Assembly (NCBI GenBank): GCA_015233115.1
Contig: JADFYJ010000003.1
Coordinates: 40,536 to 104,535, forward strand
From: Candidatus Omnitrophota bacterium
GTDB taxonomy: Bacteria > Omnitrophota > Gorgyraeia > Zapsychrales > Zapsychraceae
Direction: 5' to 3'
Length of the DNA: 64,000 bases
Made by a program: the position numbers and the translations under genes. Shown here in pieces: positions 10,347 through 60,612 of this stretch (its first letter is position 1; every line of letters starts with the position of its first letter). The notes beneath the pieces are model-generated. The model was not told the DNA's origin. It was given only the letters and a program-made list of their open reading frames with translations, and searched no databases.

Positions 10347-10377
10347 TTTTTAAAAATTATTTATACGCGCGCTTTGT

Positions 10378-11837: not shown

Positions 11838-11838
11838 A

Positions 11839-12744: not shown

Positions 12745-12750
12745 TTAAGA

Positions 12751-13431: not shown

Positions 13432-13604
13432 GAATTTGTGGCTGTTAAAAAAAGGGTATCAAAAAGTCCTGTATGAAATTAGCCGATTTATGGCTGTTTC
13501 CAAAACGAACGTTTTTTAAACATTTGGAGAGAATGTTGGTAGAGGTGAGGACGGGCTCAATTATAGCGGTGTGTTATAACGGATGACAGTATAAACAATA
13601 ATAG

Positions 13605-14048
13605 ATGCGAGGTGAAGAAATGAAAATCATTGTCATTGCTTTATTGTCAGTATTTTTAATTGGCTGTTCGGCTGCATATTGGAATCAGGTAGCGGAAAAT
13701 ATGCGGAACAACCCGTATCATCCTCCTCAATATCAATCTCCCCAACAAAATAATCAGCCGTCTATGATTGACCAGTATCATCAAATGCAACAACAAACGT
13801 ATCAAAATCAATATCAACAACAACAGTTACAATTACAGCAACAGCAAATGCAGTTACAGCAACTACAAATACAAGCTCAACAGCGACAGCAGCAGCAACA
13901 AATTGGTCAATATTTAATGCAGCCTTTGTCCCAATATCATCCGTTAAATGTCCCCAATAACGTACCAGAACAGTCGGGAAGGGTAACAACACATTGTACT
14001 TCAGCATCGATAAACGGGGGAGGAGGAATGGATTGTACCTCTTATTAA
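13605..14048 (+). CDS. Gln-rich lipoprotein
   Basis: Lipobox LIGC. Long poly-Q/L region. The true start may be the ATG at 13620 (MKIIV). Confidence 0.5.
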   Translation: MRGEEMKIIVIALLSVFLIGCSAAYWNQVAENMRNNPYHPPQYQSPQQNNQPSMIDQYHQMQQQTYQNQYQQQQLQLQQQQMQLQQLQIQAQQRQQQQQIGQYLMQPLSQYHPLNVPNNVPEQSGRVTTHCTSASINGGGGMDCTSY

Positions 14049-14149
14049 TTAACAAACAAAATTAATCAGTCGTATCAGTTATTTCGGGAAAAGCTCTTCC
14101 GCTTCATTAATTTTAGAAAATATTTTTTTGTTTATGAGACATAAAGAAA

Positions 14150-14641
14150 TTAGGATGGCTTTCGGCTGTCCTTTATTGCTTCTGTAAGTCCTAAATCTTC
14201 ACAATGATTTTTTAAAACCTCTTCGCCCTCTTTGGTTAAATCCAATAAAATTTGTTTATTTTTAGTGTTTGGCATTAAAGATATTTGCGCTTTCAAGTTT
14301 TTAAATATTGAAAGGGCTTGAATAAGACTTGAATACATTGGCAGATTCAAAATCTGTTTCGACAAAGATTTTTTAACATCTTTTAGATCAAAAGGGAAAG
14401 ACCAATTGACGTAGGGGGCTGTTTCTTTGTCATCTAAGACATTAGCAAGGCTAATTGCAATAGGGTAAGATGGCTTTTGTTTGGAGGCTTCTAACCTAGA
14501 AAGATAGCCTTCTGTTATACCGACTTGTTTTGCGACTTCGAGCAAGGATAGGCCTTTATCCATACGAATTTTCCTAATTCTTTGGCCCATCGTTTTGACA
14601 TCTTTTGGATAATCTGATTTTCTCATACGTTTATAATCCAC
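14150..14641 (-). CDS. CI-like XRE-family repressor of the element
   Basis: N-terminal HTH LSLLEVAKQVGITEGYLSRLE plus a C-terminal domain. Divergent from xis-int and shares an operator region with it. Confidence 0.7.
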   Translation of the reverse strand: MDYKRMRKSDYPKDVKTMGQRIRKIRMDKGLSLLEVAKQVGITEGYLSRLEASKQKPSYPIAISLANVLDDKETAPYVNWSFPFDLKDVKKSLSKQILNLPMYSSLIQALSIFKNLKAQISLMPNTKNKQILLDLTKEGEEVLKNHCEDLGLTEAIKDSRKPS

Positions 14642-14642
14642 A

Positions 14643-14718
14643 TTTCTTACCTACTTGTCAAGAAAATAGTTTACAAAAGGGAAATATTGGGGTATAATCT
14701 TACTTGTTAGGTAAGAAA
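14643..14718. promoter_or_regulatory. Divergent switch region: 11-bp inverted repeat TTTCTTACCTA / TAGGTAAGAAA flanking a sigma70-like promoter (TTTACA-17-TATAAT with TG extension) driving xis-int
   Basis: -35 at 14670-14675 and -10 at 14693-14698 with a 17-bp spacer. The inverted-repeat arms are at 14643-14653 and 14708-14718. Confidence 0.45.
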
Positions 14719-14739
14719 CAATAAAAAAGGAGTGTCAAA

Positions 14740-14919
14740 ATGGGTGATTTTATGACGGTTCAAGAAATAGCGGCTAAAGTTAGGAAGGCGACAAAAACAA
14801 TTTATCATTACGTCGAAACTGAAGTAATTCCGGCGAATTTAATTATCCGAGTTGGCAACTCAATTCGTATGCGACCTTCGGATTTTGAAAAGTGGATTGA
14901 AGGACAGCGAGGCAGATAA
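14740..14919 (+). CDS. xis: Excisionase / AlpA-like small DNA-binding protein (HTH_17)
   Basis: 59 aa. MTVQEIAAKVRKATKTIYHYVE fits a MerR-type HTH. SD AAAAAGGAG. Immediately upstream of the integrase. Under 60 aa, so not in the track. Confidence 0.6.
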   Translation: MGDFMTVQEIAAKVRKATKTIYHYVETEVIPANLIIRVGNSIRMRPSDFEKWIEGQRGR

Positions 14920-14920
14920 A

Positions 14921-15919
14921 GTGGCGCATTTTCGTAAAAGAGATAATGGGTTTTACTATGCTTATTGGAAAGAAAAACGTTCTAATGGGTTATGGTACAC
15001 AATGGCTAAAGCATTAAAGACTAAAAATAAATTTGTTGCTCAAAAACGGTTTAATAATTTATTCGCCGAAGATTTGGGAGAAGTTAAAGAGTGTTATGTT
15101 GAAGATTGGGTAGAGCTTTTAAAGCGAAGCTTGGGTACAGAAGACTTAGATTCCAAAACTACAACCAAATATATTTTTCACGCCGAACGATTTATTGGTT
15201 TTTTTAATGGTAGGGTCAGGAAAATGAGCGATTTTAGACACGAACACATTATTGAGTTCATAAATAATTTAAATCAGTCCAATTATTCAAAGAGCACGGT
15301 TGCCGGTTACGGGCGAAGTTTACGAAAAATGTTTAACATTGCTTTGGACTTAGAATATGTCCGCAAGAGTCCAATGAAGAGGTTTAAAGTAGGCAAAATG
15401 GAACAAAGACAAAGATTCTTTAATCCATCGGAGATAATTAAGATACTAGAAGTTGCTAAGGAAGATCAATTTCAATACGCACTTGTTTTGTACTCATTAC
15501 AGACGGGTTTTCGAATTGAAGAGGTTGTGGATTCCTTCTGGGAAAACATTAACCATACAAACAGAACGATTACAGTGATAGGAAAAGGAAAAAAATCCCG
15601 GCGTCAAAAGATTCCGGCGTTAGCATACGAAGCTATAATGAAATTGAATGGTAAATGGCCTACGCTTTTTGGTAAGCAACAAAAGCAGTTGTATCGCGAT
15701 GTAAAGGTTGTTTTAGCAAAAGCTGACGTAAAAGGGTCGCCGCACGTCTTTCGGGACTCCTATGCTACATATTCGATTAAAATAATGCCTTTAAGCACGT
15801 TACGGGAGAGGATGGGGCATAGTAGCTTGCTTCAGACCGATAAATATACGCACGCATTAAATTCGGAAGTTGACCCAGAAGTAATGAAATATTTTGAAGA
15901 TTGGCAAATTCAGAGGTAA
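14921..15919 (+). CDS. int: Tyrosine recombinase / phage integrase
   Basis: C-terminal catalytic residues ...R...HVFRDSYAT...GHSSLLQTDKYTH carry the R, H-x-x-R and Y. The GTG start is coupled to the xis stop. The track's ATG at 14852 would overlap xis by 68 nt. Confidence 0.8.
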   Translation: MAHFRKRDNGFYYAYWKEKRSNGLWYTMAKALKTKNKFVAQKRFNNLFAEDLGEVKECYVEDWVELLKRSLGTEDLDSKTTTKYIFHAERFIGFFNGRVRKMSDFRHEHIIEFINNLNQSNYSKSTVAGYGRSLRKMFNIALDLEYVRKSPMKRFKVGKMEQRQRFFNPSEIIKILEVAKEDQFQYALVLYSLQTGFRIEEVVDSFWENINHTNRTITVIGKGKKSRRQKIPALAYEAIMKLNGKWPTLFGKQQKQLYRDVKVVLAKADVKGSPHVFRDSYATYSIKIMPLSTLRERMGHSSLLQTDKYTHALNSEVDPEVMKYFEDWQIQR

Positions 15920-15973
15920 TTATGGATTACAATTTGGGTTACAAATGGCTAGTTTTAGGTGAAAATAGTATGA

Positions 15974-16022
15974 ACGGAAGATTCTCAGTCTTTAAACACG
16001 GGTCCGAATCCCGTTGGGGCTA
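15974..16022 (+). repeat. attR core: 49-bp copy of the tRNA-Glu 3' end
   Basis: Identical to 6892-6940. Confidence 0.85.
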
Positions 16023-16266: not shown

Positions 16267-18435
16267 GTGTTTACAAAATCATTAACGTTTAAAAAAAGTA
16301 TTTTTATTGCGTTGACCGGGATTATTTTTTTGTTTATATCTCCTCTGTATGCTCAAACGGCAGATCCCAAAGCTCCTCTACCTGCTGCGTCAACTCCGGC
16401 ATTGCCGGCTGTTGCTCAGGAACCTGCGGCCCAAAAACAAATTATCGAAGACCCAAAAGCACCAGAAGCAAAAGTTAATGCAGCGGCTGAGACCAAACTC
16501 AAGGCTGACGCTGACGCTAAGCTTAAGGCGGAATTAGACGAAAAACAAAAAGAAGAAACGCATTTTAAAGCGGATCAAGCGGCCCGTATCGCTGAAGAGC
16601 AAGCCATACAACAGAAAATTGAAGTTGAACATTTGAGCATTAAAGAAAATCAAAAAAATCAAGAAAGAAAAAGTATCTGGAAAATAATGATTTTGGGTGT
16701 TGTGGGTTTCATTTTAATATCGGGAGTATTGGTGTTTTTCTTTAAAAAAGGTGAGGTTTTTTTAGGGCAGATTAAATTGGGAACTAAAATGATCGGCGGC
16801 TTTGTGCTCGTGGCTGTGATTGCGGCGATTATAGGAAGTATCGGGATGCTGGGGTTAAAAGATTTGATGAAAAGTAACGATTATTATGGGAAAGTGACAG
16901 TTCCTTCTTTATCTGGGTTGGCTGAGGCTTTGTTTTCTTTTGAAGGAAGCAAGGCCGCTTTACGCACCATTATTAATCCGGAAATGGCGGATAATAATAT
17001 TGAAGAAGCTTTAACGGATTTAGTCAAGTATCGTCAGATGTATAAACATGGTATGGCCATATATGATGTGGCAGGTAGGACCAAAGAAGAAGATGCCGCT
17101 TATCAGGAATTTAAAACTAAATTAGATGAGGTCATGGGTGTTGACGATAAAATTATGGCGCTGGTGGAAGAAGGACGGAAGATAAGCAAGGACGATCCTA
17201 AGCGAGCTACGGTGTATGCTCAGGCAAACGCGTTGGCGGTGGGGCTATCCAATACCGGGTTTAGACGTATACAAGTTTTGTTAGACGCGATATTGAAAAT
17301 CAATATTGATCAGGCGGTGATTGCAGGAACGATTGCGGATCGGGCAATGGCCGACGCGAATTTGGAAATCATCATGGTGACTATCTTTGGGATGATATTC
17401 GCGTTGATATTAGGATTTTCTATGGCGAAATCGACGACCACACCTCTAGCGGCGACAGTATCGGTGATGGCGGCCATGTCAGAAGGAGATTTAACTAAAC
17501 GACTCAAAATGAACCGTAAAGATGAGCTGGGTGTAATGGCTAATGCGATGGACAATTTTTCAAATAAATTGTCAGAGATGATTAGCCGGATTCGCGCGGC
17601 AGCTGGACAATTATCTTCGGCAACAGAAGAAGTATCTTCCGGTTCCCAGCAAATTGCCGACGGGGCGCAACAGCAGGCGGCTTCGTTTGAACAATTATCC
17701 AGCTCTGTTCAGTCGAATTCTGATAATGTCAGATCTGCGAATAGTCTGGCCCAAAATGTGGCGGAAGAAGCAAAAAAGACCGGCAAAACTATGGAGCAAA
17801 GCGTTGACGAGATGGCGAGTATTGAAAAAGGTTCTAAGCAAATGTCCGAGGCTGTCGCATTGATTACAGAGATTGCGGATCAGACGAATTTGCTGGCTTT
17901 AAATGCAGCGATTGAAGCTGCCCGGGCAGGAGAGCACGGAAAAGGTTTTGCGGTGGTCGCGGATGAAGTCCGTCATTTGGCAGAACGCAGTGCCACGACG
18001 GCTAAAGAAATTAAAATGTTGATTAAAAATAATTTAAAACAAGTGGAAAGCGGCGTTAATATTTCAAAACTGGCAGGGCAAAGCACGCGGTTGATCGTTG
18101 AAGATATTAAGAAAATTGCGGAGCAATTGCGGTCCGTAGCGGAAAACACTCAGGAACAGGCTGCGGCTATGGAAGAAAATATGGCTATCACCGAATCGAA
18201 TTCTTCTTCATCAGAAGAATTGGCTGGCTCCGCGGAGGAAATGGCATCGCAAGCCCAGTCTTTGCAAAATATGGTAGTTCAGTTTAAAACGATAGAAAGT
18301 TCCGCGCCTGTTCGTCAGGCAGCAGCGCCGGTGCAGTTGAAAAAAAATGAAAAAATTAAAAAAACGGTTTTAAAACCTGCGGCTAAGCCTAGAGAAAAAC
18401 ATGGCCCTAGTGAAGAAGCGTTGAGAATCGGATGA
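16267..18435 (+). CDS. Methyl-accepting chemotaxis protein with an atypical Ala/Pro/Lys-rich N-terminal region
   Basis: HAMP domain followed by the MCP signalling domain ([38 protein letters not shown]). GTG start with SD-like GGGGG. Confidence 0.85.
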
Positions 18436-33024: not shown

Positions 33025-34428
33025 ATGATGGGGCGGGGACTTTATAATTTTTTAATTTTAGGATTGATTTTATTAACCACAAATGTTTATGCCGAAAAAA
33101 TTTTATTTAAAGACGGCAAAGAAAAAATCGGCTTGATCACGGAGCGGAAAGCTGATTCTGTCCGGATCGATGTGGATAATTTGGGTGTACCCATCACGTA
33201 TTATTTGGATGAAATTGACAAAATTCTGGATGATAATGGCAAACAAATTTATGGCGGGGCGAGTGTGGCTAAACCGGCCGCTAAAGTGAATGAACTGAAG
33301 GGCACAGAAACGAAAGTGTCTCCTGCGCAAATGCCGGATGGGCCATATAAAATATATTACGATAGCGGCAAATTGAAACAATCGGTTGGCATTAAGAACG
33401 GCAAGCGCGTGGGCTTGTTTCAGGAATACTTTGAAAGCGGAAAATTAAAGGTGGAGGTAGAGTATAAAGACGATGTGCGGGTCAGTGATTATAAGGAATA
33501 TTTTGAAGACGGAAAATTGGCATATAAAGAGCAGTATAAAAATGGATTGGTCGACGGATTGATGCAGGAATATTATCCCAGTGGTAATTTGATGAGGGAG
33601 GTTAATTTCCAAAATAATTTGCGTAACGGGCTGGCGCGGGAATACTCGGATAAGGGAAAACCCGCCGTGGATGTTACTTTTGTGAATGATGTCCGGGAAG
33701 GGCCATACGCGGAATACGACGAAAATGGCAGCAAAGTCGTGGAGGGAATTTATAAAAACGGAAAAAAAGAAGGATTATATAAATATTATTCCAAGGACGG
33801 AAAGTTGTTCGCGGAAGCCATATATGCCGCGAATAAACAAAATGGGGCATACAAAGAATATTACCCCAATGGTCAATTAAGTGTGGAGTTAAATTTTAAA
33901 GATGGTTTGAAGACTGGGCCATTTCAAGAGTTTGATGAGAAAGGCCAGGTGACCTTTAAAGGGAATTATGTTAAAGATCAAGTCGACGGATTAGTTTCGG
34001 AATTCAAGGACGGTGTTTTAGTTAAAGAAACAACTTATGAGAATAGCAAGAAAAATGGGGCATATAAAGAATTCTACAATGGAAAAAAAGTAAAATCGCA
34101 AATCATATTTAAGGATGATGTCCGTGCGGGTTATCAGGAATTTTATGAAGATGGGAAACTGCAATATGATGAAAAATATGTGGATGGAAAAGTCAGCGGG
34201 ATAGTTAAAGAATATTATCCTAACGGCCAGCTTTTAAGAGATCTGACCTACGTCGAAGGAAAGAAAGACGGGATTTATACTGAATATTCTCCAGAAGGCA
34301 AAGTGTTAGTCGAAATCACCTTTAAGCAGGATCAGGAAGTGGACCGGAAAGTCCATAACGAAAATTTACCGGCTGGAACAGCAGAAAAACCAGAGCTACC
34401 AGCTTCTGATGTCTTGCCCCAAAAATGA
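33025..34428 (+). CDS. Secreted MORN-repeat-variant protein
   Basis: Many repeats of Y.EY..nGkL...y.nG...G. Confidence 0.6.
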   Translation: MMGRGLYNFLILGLILLTTNVYAEKILFKDGKEKIGLITERKADSVRIDVDNLGVPITYYLDEIDKILDDNGKQIYGGASVAKPAAKVNELKGTETKVSPAQMPDGPYKIYYDSGKLKQSVGIKNGKRVGLFQEYFESGKLKVEVEYKDDVRVSDYKEYFEDGKLAYKEQYKNGLVDGLMQEYYPSGNLMREVNFQNNLRNGLAREYSDKGKPAVDVTFVNDVREGPYAEYDENGSKVVEGIYKNGKKEGLYKYYSKDGKLFAEAIYAANKQNGAYKEYYPNGQLSVELNFKDGLKTGPFQEFDEKGQVTFKGNYVKDQVDGLVSEFKDGVLVKETTYENSKKNGAYKEFYNGKKVKSQIIFKDDVRAGYQEFYEDGKLQYDEKYVDGKVSGIVKEYYPNGQLLRDLTYVEGKKDGIYTEYSPEGKVLVEITFKQDQEVDRKVHNENLPAGTAEKPELPASDVLPQK

Positions 34429-35325: not shown

Positions 35326-36764
<1,439 letters not shown>

Positions 36765-37028: not shown

Positions 37029-37976
37029 TCAAGAGGTTAAGCGTCCCATCAATTGGAACGCCTTTTTTTCAAATTTCGAAAAAGCGAACCATTTTTTGCC
37101 TAAATCTTTCAACGATGCGCCGATGTGATAGACGTCCTTGTTATCTAATATCAAAAATCTATCATGTGCATTTTTGAATTCTTTAATTTCTATAGGCGGA
37201 TATTGCGCGTTGTATTTTTTAACGTCTAAAGCTAGTTGTGGAAAAATTTTGTTTGTAAAGATTGTGACTGCAACGTTCTTGTTTCTTTTTGCGAGGACAT
37301 TAAGGACGGAATCATCAATATAATTGTCTATGATCACAATTGATTTTTTTGCGCTGCGGATAAGATCAGACACGAATTTATAAGCATCAAAAACCTGCCC
37401 ATCGAAAAATATGCCTTTTTGAGGAATAATTTCTTTTTGCTCGATCGCGTCAAACACCCGCTTAAATTTTTCATCAGACTCGGATTTGAATTCGATTTGT
37501 TTTTTCTCAATACTATCCAGCCGGTGAAATAACTGGCCGTTCACAAGAAGAAACCTGCGCATAGCGACAAAAGCCCGCATAATTTGGATATTAACTTCAA
37601 TGGCTCTGTCGCTAGTGAGGACAGCTGATACTGCAGCGACGCCTTGCTCTGTGAAGGCATACGGTAAAGATCCTCCTAAGTATTGTTTTGAAGGTATCGC
37701 ATTTTGCGACACCATACTTTCGACCTCTTGTTCCGTTAATTGAAACATGAAATCAGAAGGGAAGCGTTTTATGTTTCTTTTGGCTTGTTCTCTTAAACGG
37801 ACAGGTTTCACCAAATAAAATTCTGCCAAATCTCTGTCTAACATTACTTGTAGTCCGCGTATTGTATAAATTTTGTTTTGAATAAAATCGGGTTTTAATA
37901 CTTCATTGTCTATCATTAGTATTAACCTTTCTAAGGTCGCATTTTGCGACCATAAAGAACTATTCTTTAAGATCAC
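37029..37976 (-). CDS. ORF6N-domain (KilA-N-like DNA-binding) protein with an uncharacterised C-terminal domain
   Basis: IRGLQVMLDRDLAEFY...KRNIKRFPSDFMFQLT...LPYAFTEQGVAAVSAVL. Confidence 0.6.
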   Translation of the reverse strand: MILKNSSLWSQNATLERLILMIDNEVLKPDFIQNKIYTIRGLQVMLDRDLAEFYLVKPVRLREQAKRNIKRFPSDFMFQLTEQEVESMVSQNAIPSKQYLGGSLPYAFTEQGVAAVSAVLTSDRAIEVNIQIMRAFVAMRRFLLVNGQLFHRLDSIEKKQIEFKSESDEKFKRVFDAIEQKEIIPQKGIFFDGQVFDAYKFVSDLIRSAKKSIVIIDNYIDDSVLNVLAKRNKNVAVTIFTNKIFPQLALDVKKYNAQYPPIEIKEFKNAHDRFLILDNKDVYHIGASLKDLGKKWFAFSKFEKKAFQLMGRLTS

Positions 37977-50125: not shown

Positions 50126-50464
50126 ATGTTTTTTCTTAATAAGCAGGAATCAGTCACGCTGATTGTGGTTTGCGGCGTGATTATCGGGGGTTCTGTTCTG
50201 CAGTTTGTTTCCACGCATTTCCCTTATCAATGGCGGCAGTTGGATTTTATTTCCGGGAATAAATGTTTTATTAAGGTTAATGTCAATCAGGCGACACCGG
50301 AAGAATTGGATAAGGTTCCGAATTTAGGATTGAGTACGGCTGGTCGTATTGTTTCTTACCGCAATGAACATGGCCCTTTTAAGTCCATCGAAGAAATTAA
50401 AGACATTCCGGACATCCGCAGTAAAAATTTTGAAGAATTTCAGCCTTACCTGGAGGTCAAATGA
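50126..50464 (+). CDS. comEA: ComEA-like DNA-binding helix-hairpin-helix protein
   Basis: VNVNQATPEELDKVPNLGLSTAGRIVSYR. Confidence 0.8.
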   Translation: MFFLNKQESVTLIVVCGVIIGGSVLQFVSTHFPYQWRQLDFISGNKCFIKVNVNQATPEELDKVPNLGLSTAGRIVSYRNEHGPFKSIEEIKDIPDIRSKNFEEFQPYLEVK

Positions 50465-52035
50465 AAGCGGTTTATACTCACCGTCCTTTTGTGGCTATCG
50501 CTATTAGTTTTTGTCTGGGAATTGCGGCAGGATATAAGCTGCCGGTTCCGGCTTGGATTTGGTGCGTGTCCGCTCTCAGTATGCTTTTGGTGTGCTGGCG
50601 GGTTTATTTAAAATTTCCTCCATTTCTAATTTTTTTATTAATTGGTTTTTCAGGTGCTGTTTATACCAATATTTATCAGGCTGCTATCCGCGATGATTTT
50701 GCGCGTCAAAAATTGTTAAACGCCCAGCAAGTTTATATCGAGGGTGTGGTTGCTGCAGACCCGATTTTTCGTGCCATGCGATATACAGAGAAAACAGTTT
50801 TTACGGTAGAGCTTAATCGGGCCAGGATTGTTGATAAAAATCCGCCGGAAAAATTTATTCCCATGCAAGGTAAAGTTTTGGTCAATGTGTTCCGGAAAGA
50901 AGAGGTGATTTACGGCGAGAAGTTGGGTTTAAAGGGAAAATTTAGCCGGCCGATGGAATTCGGGAAGAAAGGGCAATTTTCTTACCGGGATTATTTGGCG
51001 CGGGCCGGCATTGGTTACACATTAAATGTAAAAAAAGCTGAACCTTTAAAGCGTCTTGGGAAAGATCAGGGGCAATGGGTGGTGCGGCTGGCGTATGCTG
51101 TGCGCAAACATTTCCGCCGGATTTTTGATAATAATTTTTCGCCGGATGAATCTGGCTTAGTCAGGGCGCTCATGTTAGGCGACAGAACAGGTGTTCCGTT
51201 TTTCATATCCGACATCTTCATGAAAACTGGCACCACGCACATTTTAGCGATCAGCGGTTTTAACATCGCGATTTTGGCTGTGATGGTTTTGGTGTTTTTA
51301 AAATTTTTTCCGTTTCACCGCAACATCATTATGTCGCTCGCTGTTATTTTTTTAATTTTTAATATGATCATGACGGACATGTCCGCGTCTGTGGTCAGGG
51401 CGACCATAATGGCGTCGGTCGTTTTGATCGCGTTCATGGTTGAGCGGCCCAAGGATCATTTTAATATATTAGGCGTGGCCGCGTTTGTGGTTTTGATATT
51501 TGATCCGTTATATTTGTTTGACATCGGGTTTCAGCTGTCGTTTGTTTGCGTGTTGTCCTTGATCGTGCTCCAACCCAAAGTAAAGGCAGCGGCAGAAAAA
51601 TTGTTAGGAACACCAAAAAATAAAGTGGTTTCATGGTTGTCCGAGTCATTGCTGGTATCTTTAGCCGTTTGGATCGGCGTGATGCCGCTCATTATTTATT
51701 ATTTTCATCTCATTTCTTTTGTCTCACTTTTGGCAAACCTGCTGATTCCCTTTCTAATGTCCCTCGCCATGTTCCTAGCTATGGGCGTAATGTTTTTTTC
51801 TTTTTTCTCGGTGTATGTCATGAAATGCTTTGTAATCGTCCTGAAATTATTATTAAATCTCACCATAGGCGCCACCTTTCTGTTTGCCGAGTGTCCGTAT
51901 GGCTACGTTCAAACCAAAGAGCAAAATGGATGGTTTATTCTGGGTTACTACCTAATGTTAGGGGTCATTTTATATAAAATAAAAGAGACTGAAAAAATTC
52001 AACTTGTAAATAGTACCAAAAATGGTACACTTTAA
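50461..52035 (+). CDS. comEC: ComEC/Rec2-family membrane channel (DUF4131 plus competence domain, no metallo-beta-lactamase domain)
   Basis: Polytopic. Overlaps comEA by 4 nt. Confidence 0.7.
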   Translation: MKAVYTHRPFVAIAISFCLGIAAGYKLPVPAWIWCVSALSMLLVCWRVYLKFPPFLIFLLIGFSGAVYTNIYQAAIRDDFARQKLLNAQQVYIEGVVAADPIFRAMRYTEKTVFTVELNRARIVDKNPPEKFIPMQGKVLVNVFRKEEVIYGEKLGLKGKFSRPMEFGKKGQFSYRDYLARAGIGYTLNVKKAEPLKRLGKDQGQWVVRLAYAVRKHFRRIFDNNFSPDESGLVRALMLGDRTGVPFFISDIFMKTGTTHILAISGFNIAILAVMVLVFLKFFPFHRNIIMSLAVIFLIFNMIMTDMSASVVRATIMASVVLIAFMVERPKDHFNILGVAAFVVLIFDPLYLFDIGFQLSFVCVLSLIVLQPKVKAAAEKLLGTPKNKVVSWLSESLLVSLAVWIGVMPLIIYYFHLISFVSLLANLLIPFLMSLAMFLAMGVMFFSFFSVYVMKCFVIVLKLLLNLTIGATFLFAECPYGYVQTKEQNGWFILGYYLMLGVILYKIKETEKIQLVNSTKNGTL

Positions 52036-52047
52036 AGGAGGAAAAAT

Positions 52048-52386
52048 TTGGGGCCGATAAAAGTTGTTTTTTACGCAACGTGGACAGGCCGTGAACCTGT
52101 CAGGGAATGGTTGCAGTCATTACAAAAGGACGAAAAGAAACAAATTGGAGAAGATATTAAGACTATTCAATTCGGTTGGCCCATTGGAATGCCTGTGGTT
52201 GAGAAATTGGATCGTGATCTTTGGGAAGTTAGAACTGTAATGCGAAATAAAATTGCGAGAGTTTTATTTACAATCTATGAGAATCAAATTGTTTTGTTGC
52301 ACGGTTTTATTAAGAAGAACCGAAAAATTTCTGTTGAAGATTTGGCTTTGGCGCAACAACGATTAGGAGAAATCAAGAGAGGATAA
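52048..52386 (+). CDS. HigB/Gp49-like RelE-superfamily toxin
   Basis: TTG start with SD AAAGGAGG. Followed by an HTH partner. Confidence 0.55.
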   Translation: MGPIKVVFYATWTGREPVREWLQSLQKDEKKQIGEDIKTIQFGWPIGMPVVEKLDRDLWEVRTVMRNKIARVLFTIYENQIVLLHGFIKKNRKISVEDLALAQQRLGEIKRG

Positions 52387-52390
52387 AAAC

Positions 52391-52675
52391 ATGAAAAATA
52401 AACATGTTGGAAGTAATTTTGATGATTTTTTAAAGCAGGAAGGCATCCTGGAAGAAACAACAGCGGCTGCAACGAAAAGAGTTATTGCTTATCGCGTGCG
52501 GCAAATTATGAAAAAGAAACATCTTACTAAAAGAGCTATGACTGAACGCATGGGAATTAAGAGCCGAATCCAGCTGGACCGGTTGTTGGATCCCTCCAAT
52601 GCGTCTGTTACGTTGTTGACTTTGGATAAGGCCGCGCAAGCTCTGGGAAAGAGGCTTCGAATTCAGTTTGTTTAA
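52391..52675 (+). CDS. HigA-like XRE HTH antitoxin
   Basis: LTKRAMTERMGIKSRIQLDRLLD. Confidence 0.55.
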   Translation: MKNKHVGSNFDDFLKQEGILEETTAAATKRVIAYRVRQIMKKKHLTKRAMTERMGIKSRIQLDRLLDPSNASVTLLTLDKAAQALGKRLRIQFV

Positions 52676-52791
52676 TAAGGCTCATCACTCTCAGCCTGCT
52701 TAAATCCTCCCCAAGTGGCAAATTAAAGAAATATAGTATATATTTAAACATATTCAAAAGACACCTCCATATAATTTTTAACAGGTTTATT

Positions 52792-55700
52792 ATGAAATCG
52801 CGCGAAGCAAATATAGGGCGCAAGATTATTGCGTCATTTTTAATTTTTACATTCATGATTTCCAATGGAAGTGTGCCAGTCCGCTATGCCAACGCGCAAG
52901 AATCATTTACTTCGGGTGTAGGATTAAGTGCCGCATTTACACCGTCGCTTCTTAAAGGCGTAAAAATATACGCAGACAATCCATTTCGGTTAGATTTCAT
53001 CTTGGATAAGGGCGGCACAAGCTCACAACGTGACATGAAAATCGAGTCGGAAAGGCTAATCAAATATTTTCTCGCCGCAGTAACTGTCCCTGAAAAAGAT
53101 TTGTGGGTTAACTTGTCGCCTTATGAAAAAAACCGCATTATTCCTGATGCCTTTGGCGTAACACAAATGGGCCGCGATCTTTTGGCTCAGGATTACATCC
53201 TTAAACAAATCACCGCATCTTTAACTAATCCTGAAGGAGAAATCGGACGGGAGTTTTGGAATAAGATTTATTCATCACTATCTCGTGATCCCTGCCTTCG
53301 CGGGGATGACAACTCTTTTAACATTCCAACCGACATCTTAAGTAAAGTCTGGATCGTGCCCGAAAAAGCAGTTGTTTATGAAGCCAAAGATTCCGCCTAT
53401 GTCGTCGAAAGTAAATTGAAAGTAATGACGGACCAAGATTATGCTTTATCGGTCGGGACAGGTCCCCTTCCTGTCCGGATGGAAGAATCTACCCAACAAG
53501 TCATTCGTGAGGTGATCATCCCTCTTTTGGAAAAAGAAGTCAACACTGGCAAAAATTTCGCCCAGCTCCGGCAGGTTTATAATTCGCTTATTCTGGCCAT
53601 GTGGTTTAAAGATAAAATCAAGGAAAGCATATTCGGCAAAGCCTATGTCGATCAAAACAAAACCGGCGGCATTGATATCGCGGACAAAAACGAAAAAGAA
53701 AAAATCTGGGCCAAGTATGTCGAGACATTTAAAAAAGGCGCGTATAATTACATCAAAGAAGAATACGACCCTAATATCCAACAGATAATCCCCAGAAAAT
53801 ATTTCTCCGGCGGATTTACCGCTTTAGGGCTTCAGCATAATCTGATCAGGACGCATGATAGGGCGATGCTTCAGCCAGCAGTTTTGGACAATGCCATGAT
53901 TGTTAAAACAAATTTTACCGCTACGAATCAAAATACAGATAAGGTTGCCATGATAATGTTGGATCGCGGATTGGAATTGACGGTCTTTCGCCGGCCTGAA
54001 CCGGCCATGGTAAATAATTTTTCCTGGGAGGATATTTATTCCGGAGGCCGACTGGCTTTTGGTGATAAGGAAGATGTTGATGCCCGGGTTAAGCAAATTT
54101 TATCTTCTGTCATGTGGAAAGAATTAGAAAACGCCTTGCCTTACGTGGATCAATTTGTTGACCGTATCTTTGCGGAGTATCCGGATTATACGATTATTGT
54201 CGCTGGCCGTGATGGTGAAATTTTTTATGACGCTTTATCGTGGAAGAAACTGCCTGCCACAAAAGTACGATTGATACACAGCGGCCATTTTCTTTTATCA
54301 GATCTGATTCATAAACAAGAGGCGGCGGCAGAAAAAGGCCTCATTGATCCGGTGGTAAAGAAATTTTTGGAAGACGCGGGATTAACTCCCCAGGCTATTA
54401 AAAATAAAGAAAAATTTTTATTTGTAGATACGGGTTTCCGCGGATCAGCCGGACAAATTCTTAAGGAAATTTTTTGGTCTGTATTTCCTCATGCCGAAGG
54501 CTTGCGTTTCGAATCTGTTTTAATGGCAGGCTGGGATCCAAAACTCACGTACTTGCGGCCCATTTATGCCGAGCCGTTGATTTTTTTTGACGTACCGAAA
54601 GATAAACTAGTACATGATTTTAGCAGATCATACGCGTTGATTCCCCAAGAATATAAAAATAAAACGACGCCGTACACAACAAATTTTACTTTGGGCACGG
54701 TGCTCCAGCTTCTTCCGCGGTATCATGGACATTCTCTCAGTGCTATTTTGTCCCACGATGGAAGACTTGAGATCAAGTTTACGGAAGTCCCGGTTAATTG
54801 GGACATGGACACGATTGATTATAGAGGTTTTGACAGCGATATAGTTAATCCGCTCGCCGCGCTCATGGTACAAAAAAGAACTCTTGAATATTTTGCGGCT
54901 AAGCAACGGACTGTTTTAGGCCCTGACCGCGCGATGATGCGCGATTATGAAAAAGATGATTCAGTCGCTTTCGCGCTCAAGTCGCGTAAAATAAGTCATT
55001 CTTTAGAGGCGGCAGATGAGAATAATCCATATTCTAATATGTTTGAAATTAAATCATCCGGGTTTGTGAGTCATAGCCAAATCCATTCGTATCTTGGAGA
55101 AGATTTCGACCGGATTGTCGCGGAAAATTATTCAAAATATATTCCACAAGGCGGGCGGGTTCTGGACTTGATGAGCGGGTACCATACTCACATTGGGGAA
55201 AATCTAAATCTTAATCAAGCCGCTGGGGTTGGATTAAACGCGTATGAAATGTATGCTAATCCAAAACTGACATCTTTCAATCTTCAGGACCTTAATACAA
55301 ATCCGAAGTTTCCCTCAGATTGGAATGAACATTTTGACGCGGTTATTATGACGAGCGGAATAGCTTATCTTACTAGTCCGCAAGATGTTTTTAGATCTGC
55401 CGCCAAAACTCTAAAGCCCGGCGGAGTTTTTATGCTGGCTTTTGACCGGCATTTTTTAGTGCCTGAAGCTATGCCTCTATGGGAAACTTTTTCCAACGAG
55501 GAGCGTTTGGCTTTTGTCTTGAAAAAGCTTGAACTGGCTGGAGGTTTTAAAATTACGGAGCATAAAATTTATCCTCAAGACGGAATAACTATTATCGTTT
55601 GCCGTAAGTCTGCTATCTCCGGCCAAGAATCTGAGACACAAACACTTCCGTTGAAAGAATCTTTTCAGAGGACACAGCTCAGGACTCAGGATATGGATCC

Positions 55701-58700
55701 CATCTTTGTAGAAGCTGAACGGTTTAGCGGGGGCCCAAAAATGAAAGTTAAAATGCCGGCCGCGGTTTATCAGCGGATAGAGACCCGGGACAAGGGAGCT
55801 TTTTTTATCAAAGGGCTTGAGTCGTTGATTGGCGAGTGTTTTTACGAAATCAATCGAAAGACCAGGGCTTTGGAAATTAAGCAAATTTCACCGGAAAGAG
55901 TTAGTTTTCATGGATGGCAATATTTTAGTATGTTGCTCCATATCTTAAGAACAGCGGTCACGATAAGTCTCAAAGAGGAGGACACGAAGGGCGCCGTGAC
56001 AGTCCGGCTCACGAATCTCAATAATAATAAACAAGTTGGAGAACTGGCTTTGCGTTTAAACGGAATTTTGAATGTGAGGCTTTTCAATACCAACGTTCAA
56101 GAATGGAGCATCAGCGCTGAAAGAACGAGAGAGTTTCTTGACGCAACAAAAAAAATTTTAGACGAACAATTCAAGACTTTGCCTGATTTTGCGGCTGACC
56201 GCGCGATGATACAGGCTTCTATGATAAAAGACGGAAATAAATTTCAATCTTTTCAACTTGCGCCCCGGACTGCGCTTTACCCCGGCGGGTTGGATTTTAG
56301 AATTTTTGATTTGTTCCCGAATCTTGAGGTTGCGCATTTTGTCAATAACCGGCCTTTTCGAGTTGAATTTTTAATGGAGAATTTGTTTTTTTACGACATA
56401 TCACCATATTCAAATTTTTTCGGTCATCTGGCATATAAACAAATGATGGTGAGATATCTCCAATCTTCAGCTGATTATTTTATTAGTGATGACCTTCAAG
56501 ATTCAATAATGTATGGCACATATCTTCAAATGCATTGGGACAAGATTCAAATAGGAATGGAACCTTTTGTTTTGGCGGAACTGGAAAAGCGTGAGGCGAA
56601 GAATATCCAGGTTAAACAAATTAATGAAGATGTTTGGACTGGAAAATTATTTCAAATTGAATTCGATGATAAGACTGGCCGTCATAGAACAGTTTATTAT
56701 CATGAAACCGACGCTTTTAAAGCGCCGGGCAATAAAATTTTATCTGATGGAATAGCCAATGGCGCGGATTTAGTTTTTTTAAAGGGATGGAATGTTGAAA
56801 AATATCCGTCGATGGTCGGGCAAATATTAAGACCCGGAACAATTATTGCTCAGGATAGAACGGAAAAGCGCGAAGACTATAAAGTGTTGGGCCGGCTGGG
56901 TGGGGTTGCTTCATATTGGGGGCAATTAGGCCATAATAATTATATGCGGGTTTACGAATATCAGCCTTTAGCGGGCGACTACATGATAAAGCGGAGTCCA
57001 GCAGATGCTGCGCCGATGAGTCATGACCAGGCAATGAACAGTCTCCTTGATAATGTTATTTTTATTAATAACTTAACGCAAGCGGGTTTGTCAGGATATC
57101 TGAAAACTTTCAGAGACGTCTCTCCTAATAAAGGCAGACAGCTTGCCGGAATGGGACGGGAAGTTTTGGGTACATTTTATTTTGGATCGCAAGGGACCGA
57201 AAAGCCAACGTTGATTTTAGCGTCGAGAACTAAAAATAGTGAGGGCATAAATTCACATAGAGAATTGGCCGGGTTAATTGGCCAGGATGAAAATGCCGGG
57301 GTGCCATTTATATGGCATTTTGACGATAAGAAAGATCCGAAAGAGCTCATTCTTTTCAGTAGTAAAGATAAAGATATTAGTGAACATGAAAAGCGCGGAC
57401 AAATTATTTTTTCCGCGAAGATTTTGTTAAAAATGATACAAGGGGTATACCCCCAAGCAGACGATTGTTATCTGATCAGATTGGCAGTCCAAGAGAATGT
57501 GCTGACAAAAGAGGATATGGAAAGCCTAAGCTTTTCTCAATATCCAGGAGGTCTTTATGACCTTCGGGCGATTGCGAATCTCCCAATGGAGCATGATCCG
57601 GTAATGAACATTTTCCCTCCTCGCGTGGCAGAGCGGGCCCAAGCCTTGCGCGATACTATTGCGCAAGTCCGCAAAGAACAGCCGGATTCAGCAATCCATT
57701 TTGAAAATACTGTTGATGAACACGGCGAACTGCCGGAAGAGGAATTGGTTGCAGACCCAAAACAAAAATTATTGAACGACGAGGAGTCAGAGAGATATGG
57801 CGACCGGGAGAATCGGATAGCTTATTGGGCGAATCAATATGACGTGAAAATTGAATTTCTTAAACTTGTTCGGGATTATCAATCAGGTCAGATTAAAAAT
57901 ATAAAAGATTTTGAAAGCAGGCTTCTAAAAATGCATCGAGTCCTACTTCTTGGATACGATGGACAATCTCTTTATGCTCCACAAACTTTTTTACATTTCC
58001 ATATCAAGTCTAGGATGGAATTAAAAAATGAAATAGATGCAATAGCAGGGAGGTTTTTTGATCGGCTGCCGGATAATAAGGTAAAAATTATTTATGAAGA
58101 TTTTCAAAGACTCATGAAATATTTTAATTCAGTAAATTTAACAATTGAATTGAATAGTTTCACGGCTGATTTAAGCCGGTTCTATTCAAATTTTTTAGGA
58201 GATTGGCAAACCACGGGTTATTTATTTGAGTATGGAAATAATTCATTGGTAATGAATATGTTTAATGGGTTTTTGCGTCTAGCTGATTTTAAAGGAATCT
58301 CCCATAATGAGTTTGATTCAGAAGCTTATGACTTAACGAGAGGTTTGCGGTATGCAAAAATTGCGGCAATTAGAATGGGGACTAAGGTAGAGCTCCAAGA
58401 GTCAGATATACCACCAGTGTATAAATCTTTTTTAACGGCCATAAAGGCAGCAAATGATCGCGACCGCGCGCAAACAAGTAACACCGGCGGTATTGATTTA
58501 ACCCGTGATAAAATGGGACTGCAGGTTCGGGGCACGGGAGACGGTGTTCAGTTTAAATTTGATGCTGCTATGATTCAAAAATTACAAAATGCTTCAGGCC
58601 TCACGCCCGTTATCATCGACATTCGACCTATGACTACGACTGTGCCGGTGTTTTTAGGTTTGAGTGAAGAAATTCCTGCCGCGAAATTAAGCATGAGATA

Positions 58701-58701
58701 G
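52792..58701 (+). CDS. Giant (1969 aa) secreted protein of unknown function with an embedded class I SAM-methyltransferase-like domain (~nt 55100-55560)
   Basis: Signal peptide FLIFTFMISNGSVPVRYANA/QE. MTase motifs GGRVLDLMSG (I), FDAVIM, LKPGGVFMLAF. Confidence 0.6.
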   Translation: MKSREANIGRKIIASFLIFTFMISNGSVPVRYANAQESFTSGVGLSAAFTPSLLKGVKIYADNPFRLDFILDKGGTSSQRDMKIESERLIKYFLAAVTVPEKDLWVNLSPYEKNRIIPDAFGVTQMGRDLLAQDYILKQITASLTNPEGEIGREFWNKIYSSLSRDPCLRGDDNSFNIPTDILSKVWIVPEKAVVYEAKDSAYVVESKLKVMTDQDYALSVGTGPLPVRMEESTQQVIREVIIPLLEKEVNTGKNFAQLRQVYNSLILAMWFKDKIKESIFGKAYVDQNKTGGIDIADKNEKEKIWAKYVETFKKGAYNYIKEEYDPNIQQIIPRKYFSGGFTALGLQHNLIRTHDRAMLQPAVLDNAMIVKTNFTATNQNTDKVAMIMLDRGLELTVFRRPEPAMVNNFSWEDIYSGGRLAFGDKEDVDARVKQILSSVMWKELENALPYVDQFVDRIFAEYPDYTIIVAGRDGEIFYDALSWKKLPATKVRLIHSGHFLLSDLIHKQEAAAEKGLIDPVVKKFLEDAGLTPQAIKNKEKFLFVDTGFRGSAGQILKEIFWSVFPHAEGLRFESVLMAGWDPKLTYLRPIYAEPLIFFDVPKDKLVHDFSRSYALIPQEYKNKTTPYTTNFTLGTVLQLLPRYHGHSLSAILSHDGRLEIKFTEVPVNWDMDTIDYRGFDSDIVNPLAALMVQKRTLEYFAAKQRTVLGPDRAMMRDYEKDDSVAFALKSRKISHSLEAADENNPYSNMFEIKSSGFVSHSQIHSYLGEDFDRIVAENYSKYIPQGGRVLDLMSGYHTHIGENLNLNQAAGVGLNAYEMYANPKLTSFNLQDLNTNPKFPSDWNEHFDAVIMTSGIAYLTSPQDVFRSAAKTLKPGGVFMLAFDRHFLVPEAMPLWETFSNEERLAFVLKKLELAGGFKITEHKIYPQDGITIIVCRKSAISGQESETQTLPLKESFQRTQLRTQDMDPIFVEAERFSGGPKMKVKMPAAVYQRIETRDKGAFFIKGLESLIGECFYEINRKTRALEIKQISPERVSFHGWQYFSMLLHILRTAVTISLKEEDTKGAVTVRLTNLNNNKQVGELALRLNGILNVRLFNTNVQEWSISAERTREFLDATKKILDEQFKTLPDFAADRAMIQASMIKDGNKFQSFQLAPRTALYPGGLDFRIFDLFPNLEVAHFVNNRPFRVEFLMENLFFYDISPYSNFFGHLAYKQMMVRYLQSSADYFISDDLQDSIMYGTYLQMHWDKIQIGMEPFVLAELEKREAKNIQVKQINEDVWTGKLFQIEFDDKTGRHRTVYYHETDAFKAPGNKILSDGIANGADLVFLKGWNVEKYPSMVGQILRPGTIIAQDRTEKREDYKVLGRLGGVASYWGQLGHNNYMRVYEYQPLAGDYMIKRSPADAAPMSHDQAMNSLLDNVIFINNLTQAGLSGYLKTFRDVSPNKGRQLAGMGREVLGTFYFGSQGTEKPTLILASRTKNSEGINSHRELAGLIGQDENAGVPFIWHFDDKKDPKELILFSSKDKDISEHEKRGQIIFSAKILLKMIQGVYPQADDCYLIRLAVQENVLTKEDMESLSFSQYPGGLYDLRAIANLPMEHDPVMNIFPPRVAERAQALRDTIAQVRKEQPDSAIHFENTVDEHGELPEEELVADPKQKLLNDEESERYGDRENRIAYWANQYDVKIEFLKLVRDYQSGQIKNIKDFESRLLKMHRVLLLGYDGQSLYAPQTFLHFHIKSRMELKNEIDAIAGRFFDRLPDNKVKIIYEDFQRLMKYFNSVNLTIELNSFTADLSRFYSNFLGDWQTTGYLFEYGNNSLVMNMFNGFLRLADFKGISHNEFDSEAYDLTRGLRYAKIAAIRMGTKVELQESDIPPVYKSFLTAIKAANDRDRAQTSNTGGIDLTRDKMGLQVRGTGDGVQFKFDAAMIQKLQNASGLTPVIIDIRPMTTTVPVFLGLSEEIPAAKLSMR

Positions 58702-58703
58702 AG

Positions 58704-59107
58704 TTATATCAAGAATTGACGCTCAAATAATGCGGGAGTTAAAACTGAAAGATTTTTATAACCTGCTGTTCTTAATAAGGCTTTGTCGCCGGTTACGATA
58801 ATGGCTTTAACAGTTAAAGCACAGGCAATAAATTTATCATCATCTGGATCGTCGCATACCGCATGAAGGAGAGCTGTTGGTTTTGTCAAACGCACATTTT
58901 TTCGGATAAAAAAGAGAAGGTCTTGTCTGGGTTAAACATTGATTTATTTTGCGCGAGTTCCTGTATGACGCGTTCGTATTCATCTAGAATTTCGGTTGTT
59001 GCAAAAAGCGTGAATTGTCCTGAGTGCCATGCTTTTAGAATACGCGAGGGTGTACCGTTAAAAAATAAACCGGAGATGAGAACATTGGTGTCAAGAACGA
59101 CGTTCAT
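58704..59107 (-). pseudogene. vapC: PIN-domain VapC toxin split by a frameshift (two overlapping ORFs, 58886-59107 and 58704-58895)
   Basis: The N-terminal part carries VVLDTNVLIS and the C-terminal part carries DDDKFIACALTVKAIIVTGDKALL, in different frames. Confidence 0.55.
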
Positions 59108-59370
59108 TTGTAATGTCGAACTTTCTTAATAGCACTAGTAACATCAGCCGGTTTTAACTGAACTTTTCGGGCATAATCTTTCGCTTCAGCAAGGATAATA
59201 TTGAATTCGTCCTTTGAAGGTTCTGGCGTAGCCTTAAAAACGATGGTGTCGTCTTTCCCGTAGACGAGAAATAAATCCCCTGTTTTGAGCTTCAAATTAG
59301 CGCGTATGGCCTCGGGAATAACAACCTGCCCTTTAGATGATAATTTTGTGGTGGCTTTAATCGCGATCAT
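59104..59370 (-). CDS. AbrB/MazE/SpoVT-family antitoxin (VapB-like)
   Basis: KLSSKGQVVIPEAIR swapped-hairpin motif. Overlaps the vapC start. Confidence 0.65.
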   Translation of the reverse strand: MIAIKATTKLSSKGQVVIPEAIRANLKLKTGDLFLVYGKDDTIVFKATPEPSKDEFNIILAEAKDYARKVQLKPADVTSAIKKVRHYK

Positions 59371-59610
59371 ATGTTTCCTTTCTTACTAGTAAGATTATAA
59401 CATGATTTTATAAAAAAACAAGAGCATCTCATTAATTACCCTGAAAAAATGGTGTCAGAAAAAATGGTGTCAGATCTCGACTTGAAACATTTTGTTCGAA
59501 ACGAAAGCTTTTCGCCGGTTAACTGCCAAGCGTCAAAGGTGGGTCGAGGTCAGACACCATTTTTTAGGCTTAAATTGACAAAGCTAAAGGACTATGCTAG
59601 AGTTTTGGCA

Positions 59611-60612
59611 ATGAAAAAATCCCATGTACTACTTATATTATTAGGTTTATTTTTTCTCGCCCAAGATGCTTCCGCATTCTGGATGTGGACCCCGGAAACC
59701 AATAAATGGGTGAACCCCAAATATTCGGTCAAAGATACCCCCAAAGAGCAGTTGGATTTTGCCAAGGGATTTTATGATTCAAAACAATATCCGGAAGCAG
59801 TCCGTGAACTTAAAAAATTAATCAAAAATTATCCTAAATCTCGGGATGCGGCCAACGCGCAATATTATATTGGCCGGTGTTACGAGGATCAGGGAAAACT
59901 ATATTCCGCTTTTAAGGAATACCAACTGGTTTTGGATAAGTATCCGTTTAGTGAGATGTCGCCGGAGGTGATTGAACGGGAGTATAAGATTGGCCAGAAG
60001 TTAATGGATAATCCTAATAAGGGAACCATTTTGGACGCGGTGGCCGGCGAGAAATATGATATTGTCAAAGTGTTCCAAACTATTATTAAAAACGAGCCCT
60101 ATGGTAAATATGCCGCGCCATCCCAGTATAAGATTGGTTTGTATTTGATGGGAAAAGGATTAACTCAGGAAGCCCGGGATGAATTTGAGAAGGTGATTAA
60201 TGATTATCCGGAGAGTGAATGGGTCAAAGCCGCGAAATATCAAATCGCAACCGCGGATTCCAAACGTTCCACCAAGGCGCAGTACGATCAGAAAGTTACG
60301 GGATCAGCTGTCGATGAATTTAAAAATTTTGTCAAAGAATATCCAGACGCTGAATTAACTCAGGTCGCGAAAGATCAGATTCAGGAATTGAGAGATAAAG
60401 AGGCGGAAAATAATTTTGTGGTCGCGGAATTTTATGAGAAGCAAAAAAATTATTCTGCCGCTAAATTATATTATGAAGGCATTGTGACTGATTACAAAGA
60501 TTCTAAGTGGGCGATTAAGGCTTTGCGGAAAGTAAGAGATTTAGGCGATAAGGTTGATAAAGTTGATAAATTTGACAAAATTGAAAATCACGCCTCTAAA
60601 GGAAAAAAATGA
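59611..60612 (+). CDS. TPR-repeat envelope protein (BamD/YbgF-like)
   Basis: Signal peptide LLILLGLFFLAQDASA followed by TPRs. Start placed at ATG 59611; the track's 59449 start would translate an inverted-repeat region. Confidence 0.5.
   Translation: MKKSHVLLILLGLFFLAQDASAFWMWTPETNKWVNPKYSVKDTPKEQLDFAKGFYDSKQYPEAVRELKKLIKNYPKSRDAANAQYYIGRCYEDQGKLYSAFKEYQLVLDKYPFSEMSPEVIEREYKIGQKLMDNPNKGTILDAVAGEKYDIVKVFQTIIKNEPYGKYAAPSQYKIGLYLMGKGLTQEARDEFEKVINDYPESEWVKAAKYQIATADSKRSTKAQYDQKVTGSAVDEFKNFVKEYPDAELTQVAKDQIQELRDKEAENNFVVAEFYEKQKNYSAAKLYYEGIVTDYKDSKWAIKALRKVRDLGDKVDKVDKFDKIENHASKGKK

Follow-up and report, generated by a model that had tools for sequence, protein, structure and literature searches.

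A 1,969-residue Omnitrophota protein with a predicted signal peptide, mosaic cargo and two conserved terminal caps

We analysed a 64,000-nucleotide (nt) stretch of the Candidatus Omnitrophota contig JADFYJ010000003.1 (the window), in which a single gene encodes a protein of 1,969 amino acids (aa), here called the giant protein. It belongs to a large family in which a conserved N-terminal cap (N-cap) and a conserved C-terminal cap (C-cap) enclose a mosaic of cargo modules that differ from member to member. The reading we lean towards, at somewhat better than an even chance, is that this is a family of exported modular proteins restricted to Omnitrophota, in which the two caps would serve as a joint handle and the enzymes would act outside the cytoplasm of the producing cell. 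Omnitrophota are widespread, largely uncultured and ultra-small; they are thought to be predators or parasites of other microbes. Attention so far has been on Omnitrophota giant proteins of 10–147 thousand amino acids (kaa), which are almost impossible to study. The capped family offers the enzyme vocabulary of those giant proteins in a tractable 0.7–3.3-kaa format, together with two unannotated address-like modules and a candidate junction motif.

The first-pass annotation of this DNA had described one intact 1,969-aa open reading frame (ORF) with a Sec signal peptide, and its coordinates and ATG start are borne out. The product is 100% identical to HQL26_02470, a 'hypothetical protein' from an NCBI metagenome-assembled genome (MAG) of a Candidatus Omnitrophica bacterium. 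Its N-terminus reads MKSREANIGRK-IIASFLIFTFMI-SNGSVPVRYANA, followed by QE: four K/R residues precede a 12-residue hydrophobic h-region (IIASFLIFTFMI), and a putative cleavage site then falls between ANA and Q. This succession of n-region, h-region and AxA site agrees with the signal peptide proposed at first, and the same pattern, as scored by a permissive regular expression, is found in 51 of the 52 family members with complete N-termini. The h-region lies in the sole hydrophobic 19-residue window of the whole protein, which has no internal transmembrane (TM) segment and no lipobox cysteine. Exclusion of cysteine is an established trait of exported bacterial proteins. Here cysteine accounts for four of the 1,969 residues (0.20%), versus 1.04% across the 29 other large ORFs in the window (binomial p = 2e-5); in the family as a whole it makes up 0.15% of 211,575 residues. 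Self-BLAST found no internal repeats, as had been noted by eye. The organism is a diderm, with bamD-like, lptE and murJ genes adjoining the region of the giant gene. The signal-peptide pattern, taken with the insertion seen by synteny (below), adds support to the initial view of an exported, accessory protein with no housekeeping role.

A whole-protein search returned more than 3,519 significant matches among the 8,000 candidates scored, each spanning just 15%–25% of the query; the named matches were all from Omnitrophota. In BLAST mapping, residues ~1–380 are common to all 119 other listed matches (50%–60% identity), and the last ~79 residues are common to 112 of the 119, at the extreme C-terminus (50%–80% identity), with almost nothing in common between the caps. 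In no listed match is either cap more than a few residues away from the true terminus. Of the 271 proteins gathered, the N-cap is present in 125, the C-cap in 123 and the two together in 118; the C-only proteins are all fragments, and several 'N-only' proteins have truncated or divergent C-caps. Some capped members have just ~720–830 aa. At least 594 N-cap loci are present in species-representative genomes, and the MAGs that carry N-caps are labelled Omnitrophota/Omnitrophica, a named candidate genus or 'uncultured Planctomycetales', with no others; the last label is taken to be a mislabel. Up to eight capped copies per MAG, often in tandem, were found within the 80 loci fetched, and the window has this one copy only. 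Paralogy in the family is old and maintained and not the result of a recent burst, because the closest relative of 49 of 70 N-caps is in a different genome.

The giant protein has the conserved N-cap (motifs WVNLSPYE, QDYxLKQITAS, VWIVPEKA, NFAQLRQVY and RKYFSGG), and its extreme C-terminus corresponds to the family C-cap, of which the consensus is GGIDLT...F.FDPAM...TPVII.I.PM...FLG. Searches of Pfam-A, NCBIfam, PHROGs and PADLOC gave no match to either cap, and neither did a profile search of the PDB; a homology search with the C-cap alone yielded three short fragments only. The alignment of N-caps has no invariant His or Cys. The capped family is apparently undescribed: no account of it turned up in literature searches, which did not extend to subscription papers (e.g., Kizina et al. 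2022). The caps would most likely serve as shared sorting or docking handles.

The region between the caps consists of modules that occur piecemeal in other proteins, as seen by BLAST against family members and by an exhaustive HMMER search; residues 381–1880 used as a query through a word index retrieved one other protein. Modules A, C and D and residues 930–1129 have no Pfam match. A profile search of the PDB with module C gave only matches at E ~0.7, to class I O-methyltransferases, a weak lead that module C is possibly Rossmann- or methyltransferase-like, which we do not claim. In other members the Pfam domains between the caps include radical SAM, PPDK_N/PEP-utilisers, APH kinase, transketolase, NUDIX, HAD, histidine phosphatase, PRTase, adenylate kinase, GNAT, GT2/GT4, CheY, HATPase_c and HEAT, or else no domain is recognisable. 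The first-pass annotation had built its view of the protein around a methyltransferase; that domain is just one of at least six cargo modules, and it is the caps that define the protein. Homologues of the methyltransferase block or of module C are also carried by uncapped proteins of 2.6–7.7 kaa (P0122, P0123, P0126, P0162 and P0167), which suggests that several architectural classes of long Omnitrophota proteins draw on a common pool of modules.

A short motif, D-x-A-M (D.AM), is found at three mapped module boundaries of the giant protein (residues 712, 1136 and 1412), and DRAQ stands at residue 1891, just before the C-cap. The giant protein has six D.AM sites versus 0.3 expected. Compared with shuffles, the 120 listed proteins show a 14-fold excess of the motif (334 versus 23.5), and in the cargo alone the excess is 8-fold (131 versus 16.7 expected). 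In most members a D.AM lies 5–12 residues ahead of the C-cap, and starts of local homology (high-scoring segment pairs, HSPs) are ~2.3-fold enriched within 40 residues of a D.AM. The 21 uncapped long relatives that carry the same modules have zero or one site each; the count is zero in P0122–P0126 and one in P0167. The motif might mark either a place of cleavage or a structural joint. At the nucleotide level, the three D-R-A junctions (54923-54938, 56195-56210 and 58462-58470) use identical codons, GAC CGC GCG, and share GACCGCGCG; two of them share the 16-nt CTGACCGCGCGATGAT, which is GC-rich against a genome of ~42% GC. Constraint on the DNA itself, such as recombination sites at the D-R-A-M linkers, was considered and is not supported: across the family, third-position GC is shifted at the Ala codon before ATG alone (0.80 versus 0.57, n = 50), with no such shift at the Asp codon.

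In a full-length Pfam scan the S-adenosylmethionine (SAM)-dependent methyltransferase (MTase) module is marginal, with Methyltransf_23 at 25.5, below the cut-off, and Methyltransf_11 at 21.2, exactly at the cut-off. Residues 761–960 scanned alone exceed both gathering scores (Methyltransf_23, 31.0 versus 27; Methyltransf_11, 25.3 versus 21.2). An exhaustive HMMER search with residues 690–1889 against 1.84 billion representatives produced 1,403 matches, and most of those listed cover residues ~745–925 (E 1e-17 to 1e-35), many of them proteins of ~400 aa. All ten MTase relatives scanned (10/10) clear the Methyltransf_11 cut-off, and one relative is annotated 'methyltransferase domain-containing protein [Desulfovibrionaceae]' (MGE4299052.1). 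The query has VLDLMSGYH and GVGLN in place of VLDxGxGxG and the acidic residue after strand 2. Across 126 aligned relatives, L-D-L-M-S-[SG] is 90%–97% conserved (L 97%, D 96%, L 93%, M 90%), as are GxGxN..E..N, DLN, FD, YL..P, L.PGG and W. The inference from a degenerate-looking motif I to a pseudo-enzyme was rejected, since the variant motif is the norm of this MTase subfamily. Profile thresholds and hundreds of relatives argue that the SAM-MTase domain first proposed here is genuine.

Module E was recognised as a Fido-fold domain through a fold search with its predicted structure and not by sequence: a Pfam scan of 14 module E sequences and a profile search of the PDB found no Fic relative. 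The module is present in at least 13 family members, at times twice per protein; P0005 (1,143 aa) is among its holders, some of which have two copies. The motif F-x-x-G-N-N-S-L-x-M-N-x-x-N-G-x-L-R-L...G-I-S-H-x-x-x-D is conserved across 14 aligned members. In the model, G-N-N-S lies at the start of a helix (residues 230–233; helix 231–245), the position that the anion nest occupies in Fic proteins. The canonical HPFx[D/E]GN[G/K]R is absent; the query has YLFEYGNNSLVM, with Tyr for the catalytic His, Ser for the first Arg and Met for the second Arg, and the same replacements are seen in 14 of 14 aligned members. H1838 and D1842 are 90% conserved. The predicted structure thus places module E in the Fido fold and outside the canonical Fic family. 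The module stands immediately ahead of the C-cap in P0045, P0005, P0033, P0065 and P0118, as it does in the giant protein, which hints that this arrangement is preferred.

The giant gene sits in a 7.4-kb insertion whose GC content is like that of its surroundings. A leuS-comEA-comEC-bamD-like-lptE-holA-murJ array is conserved in at least 20 metagenomic Omnitrophota contigs, and in at least 11 of these comEC abuts the bamD-like gene. Elsewhere this junction holds unrelated cargo of 1–7 kb, including toxin-antitoxin (TA)-like pairs (loci L083 and L103), membrane proteins and a ThiF-like gene, and at one locus (L091) it holds another capped family member. Hence the comEC–bamD-like junction is a recurrent insertion hot spot in Omnitrophota, and synteny favours the accessory islet that had been suggested from the sequence. 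No tRNA adjoins the islet, and no flanking direct repeats or integrase were found at or within it; promoter and terminator scans did no better than shuffles. The intergenic DNA had been called low-complexity, and the 116-nt upstream spacer is merely AT-rich. Profile matches were obtained for the HigB/HigA pair named upstream of the gene (weak for the helix-turn-helix, HTH, partner), and the VapB with frameshifted VapC named downstream is borne out, as an AbrB-type antitoxin with a PIN domain split over two frames. The bracketing of the gene by these modules had been read as meaningful; no neighbour recurs in more than five of 80 family loci, and the TA genes are incidental neighbours of the giant gene. 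The start of the bamD-like ORF (59444-59565) has a tandem 'AAAAAATGGTGTCAGA', which encodes MVSEKMVS, together with an inverted repeat of 23 nt whose arms are 91% complementary and separated by 61 nt; these repeats might form a regulatory hairpin or be left over from the insertion.

Table 1. Features of the giant gene, its product and the surrounding insertion (positions are those of the window; res, residues of the giant protein)
Feature	Position	Strand	Remarks
7.4-kb insertion	52036..59448	.	between comEC (50461-52035) and bamD/ybgF-like gene (59449-60612); two TA modules and giant gene
HigB-like (Gp49) toxin gene	52048-52386	+	PF05973, E 1e-18
HTH antitoxin-like (HigA-like) gene, 94 aa	52391-52675	+	weak HTH match, E ~0.01
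Giant gene	52792..58701	+	ATG start, 1,969 codons, 5.9 kb; predicted signal peptide, N-cap, mosaic cargo, C-cap
Predicted Sec signal peptide, res 1-35	52792..52896	+	K/R-rich n-region, 12-residue h-region, site between ANA and Q
N-terminal cap, res 36-380, ~345 aa	52897..53931	+	alpha/beta model, no known fold
Cargo module A, res 383-721	53938..54954	+	one relative found, P0121, 35% identity; no Pfam match
DRAM linker 1, res 712-715	54925-54936	+	end of module A
Class I SAM-dependent MTase module, res 745-925	55024..55566	+	subfamily signature LDLMS[SG] / GxGxN..E
Post-MTase region, res 930-1129	55579..56178	+	in P0122 (4,446 aa, uncapped) together with MTase, 35% over res 701-1129
DRAM linker 2, res 1136-1139	56197..56208	+	16 nt identical to linker 1 (CTGACCGCGCGATGAT)
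Cargo module C, res 1151-1416	56242..57039	+	YPGGLD...FPNLE...DLLFxKAF; ends at DQAM linker (nt 57025-57036); homologues in at least 14 long proteins
Cargo module D, res 1416-1604	57037..57603	+	47% identical to P0015 residues 1426-1615
Cargo module E, res 1610-1845	57619..58326	+	Fic/Fido-fold (predicted); motif FEYGNNSLVMNMFNGFLRL...GISHNEFD at res 1812-1842, nt 58225-58317
C-terminal cap, res 1891-1969, ~79 aa	58462..58698	+	DRAQ-x5-GGIDLT...FKFDAAM...TPVIIDIRPM...FLGL
Frameshifted PIN (VapC) pseudogene, part 2	58704-58895	-	PIN_3 positions 85-115, other frame
Frameshifted PIN (VapC) pseudogene, part 1	58886-59107	-	PIN_3 positions 2-66, E 2.6e-12
AbrB/MazE-type antitoxin gene	59104-59370	-	TIGR01439, E 3e-9

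Elsewhere in the window, a low-GC island (6866-16000; 0.31–0.37 versus ~0.42) comes immediately after tRNA-Glu (6866-6941). It has a serine resolvase (7481-8095) and a tyrosine integrase (14852-15919) as its bounds, contains DUF4268, DUF3298 and six ORFs without a Pfam match, and is probably an integrated mobile element. Four other large ORFs of the window are free of cysteine (33025-34428, 35409-36764, 16267-18435 and 37029-37976); they encode MORN_2-repeat, Laminin_G_3 (ConA-like lectin), MCP chemoreceptor and ORF6N-domain proteins, and the MORN_2-repeat and Laminin_G_3 proteins are likely also exported or surface proteins.

In the scheme we favour, the giant protein would cross the inner membrane by Sec and lose its signal peptide after ANA (A35). 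The two caps together would then form a common handle for secretion through the outer membrane, for docking on the surface or on a giant scaffold protein, or for delivery to a host, and the cofactor-dependent enzyme modules would act outside the producer cytoplasm, the surface or interior of a host or prey cell being the most plausible place. Several observations weigh against this scheme. Enzymes that depend on SAM, ATP or Fe-S clusters would have no cofactor supply outside a cytoplasm and should not function in periplasm or medium; the scheme would therefore need either delivery into a host or prey cell, which is favoured, or a non-catalytic role. The case for export is made from sequence features only. 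The MTase module departs from the consensus of its subfamily at 25 of the 60 most conserved positions, and its function in the giant protein may have changed or relaxed; module E may likewise be inactive, or may use other residues. A fold search of the PDB with the predicted N-cap model gave no match, and the C-cap model (AlphaFold2, AF2, from 37 sequences) is not confident (pLDDT 46–76), a result compatible with a C-cap that would fold only against a partner. No conserved partner gene or dedicated transporter was found beside family members in 80 loci. Delivery to a host or prey cell would agree with the lifestyle proposed for the phylum (PMC10066038; 10.1101/2023.11.21.568195). The first-pass suggestion of an effector or surface-modifying enzyme is plausible, though unproven. 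A bolder version strikes us as doubtful: the caps would be two halves of a hitherto unrecognised, phylum-specific sorting or translocation device that moves sets of cytoplasmic-type enzymes (Fido, MTase, radical SAM, PPDK, kinases) from the nanobacterium onto or into its host or prey, with the D-x-A-M motifs as processing sites. The products would then be cap-addressed effector polyproteins, with a new architecture for effector delivery, and would stand as a small-format counterpart to the Omnitrophota giant proteins.

Other explanations divide over where the protein stays and whether it is cut. It might remain in the periplasm or on the surface, modifying or building the cell's own coat, with the caps as anchors, for instance through dockerin-like docking on a scaffold. 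The signal peptide and the depletion of cysteine fit such a resident equally well, a ~70-aa C-terminal module on many enzymes would parallel the dockerin-bearing cellulosomal enzymes, and HEAT-repeat scaffolds and dockerin-type giant proteins have been reported in the phylum (10.1101/2023.11.21.568195; 10.64898/2026.06.07.730766); against it, the giant protein has no dockerin, cohesin or SLH profile match and no lipobox or TM anchor, and SAM, ATP and Fe-S cargo would be without cofactors in the envelope as well. We regard this reading as unlikely. We think it less likely still that the product is an exported polyprotein, cut at D-x-A-M by a protease or by the N-cap itself to free the enzymes, with the caps serving export and processing only. 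The enrichment of D.AM in the cargo (~8-fold), its presence at 3/3 mapped boundaries and just before the C-cap in most members, its specificity to capped proteins and the excess of HSP starts nearby would all fit cleavage; however, no protease signature was seen, the N-cap has neither an invariant His nor an invariant Cys, the association between D.AM and HSP boundaries is just moderate, and in the predicted structures some sites are clearly structural (a beta-strand that ends the N-cap; the helix N-cap 'FDPAM' in the C-cap).

The least likely of the readings that turn on cleavage, surface residence or tethering is a cytoplasmic multi-enzyme held to the membrane by an uncleaved N-terminal anchor, which we consider very improbable. 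Its cargo domains are typical of the cytoplasm, and one preprint reads many Omnitrophota giants with TM segments only as cytoplasm-facing (10.64898/2026.06.07.730766), but K/R residues ahead of the h-region predict an N-in topology with the bulk of the protein outside, the h-region has just 12 residues and is followed by a conserved AxA and Q, and a five-fold depletion of cysteine is atypical of cytoplasmic proteins. We give next to no credence to the idea that the giant gene and the two TA modules make up one functional unit, such as a defence or addiction island. They are adjacent in the 7.4-kb insertion and the HigB-like protein weakly matches the PADLOC NsnC model; against this stand the failure of any TA or other neighbour to recur (at most 5/80 loci), the presence at the same junction elsewhere of unrelated genes, or of TA pairs with no family member beside them, the pseudogene state of one of the two toxins, and the lack of PADLOC matches to modules of the giant protein. 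If the caps do direct delivery, as in the scheme we favour, they would constitute a new secretion or sorting signal, and the family would supply a list of effector candidates that runs into the thousands. Otherwise, the family is still among the larger protein families found here without a Pfam-A or NCBIfam profile.

Comparison with known systems helps to place the protein. Its MTase module has 30%–42% identity over ~170 residues to the class I MTase subfamily of ~400-aa proteins, with a common signature, and differs in being embedded in a 1,969-aa protein with predicted export. Relative to Fic, Doc and AvrB, module E has (Y)xFxxGNNSLxMN in place of the Fic motif and in this respect is nearer to AvrB, which likewise lacks the motif. 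Polymorphic toxins differ in layout: in the giant protein the C-terminus is conserved, the variable part is internal, and no downstream gene recurs. The TpsA proteins of two-partner secretion (FHA, CdiA and ShlA) resemble it in having a signal peptide, a conserved N-terminal module of ~250–350 aa, a long variable region and many paralogues, and they serve as a working analogy, although the giant protein has neither the TPS beta-helix domain nor an adjacent TpsB gene. With the cargo of the type IX secretion system (T9SS) and with dockerin-bearing cellulosomal enzymes it has in common that diverse enzymes carry a signal peptide and a ~70–100-aa module at the extreme C-terminus. It has no match to a T9SS C-terminal domain (CTD) or dockerin profile (Pfam, NCBIfam), the low-confidence AF2 model of the C-cap shows neither a beta-sandwich nor an EF-hand pair, and, unlike in those systems, the C-cap is paired with an N-cap.

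The closest likeness is within the phylum. Giant 'Archaeovorin' proteins of Omnitrophota have predicted extracellular parts with a matching vocabulary of enzyme domains (West-Roberts et al. 2023 preprint, 10.1101/2023.11.21.568195), and 'multi-enzyme metabolic' long proteins have been described from the same phylum (Nielsen & Lui 2026 preprint, 10.64898/2026.06.07.730766). The capped proteins share with them the phylum, a signal peptide and cytoplasmic-type domains (MTase, radical SAM, PPDK_N, NUDIX, HAD, HATPase, CheY, GT and HEAT). The giant protein is 10–70 times shorter than these giant proteins and is without internal TM helices, C39 or SecA-like domains; with 5.9 kb and 1,969 aa it does not reach the ORF size of >20 kb (or 10 kaa and more) that, along with numerous TM helices, characterises them. 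The caps and the D-x-A-M junctions are its own, being absent from the long uncapped relatives and found in neither preprint. The giant protein would seem to belong with the exported multi-enzyme proteins of Omnitrophota, with an unproven but real chance that it represents a new sorting system.

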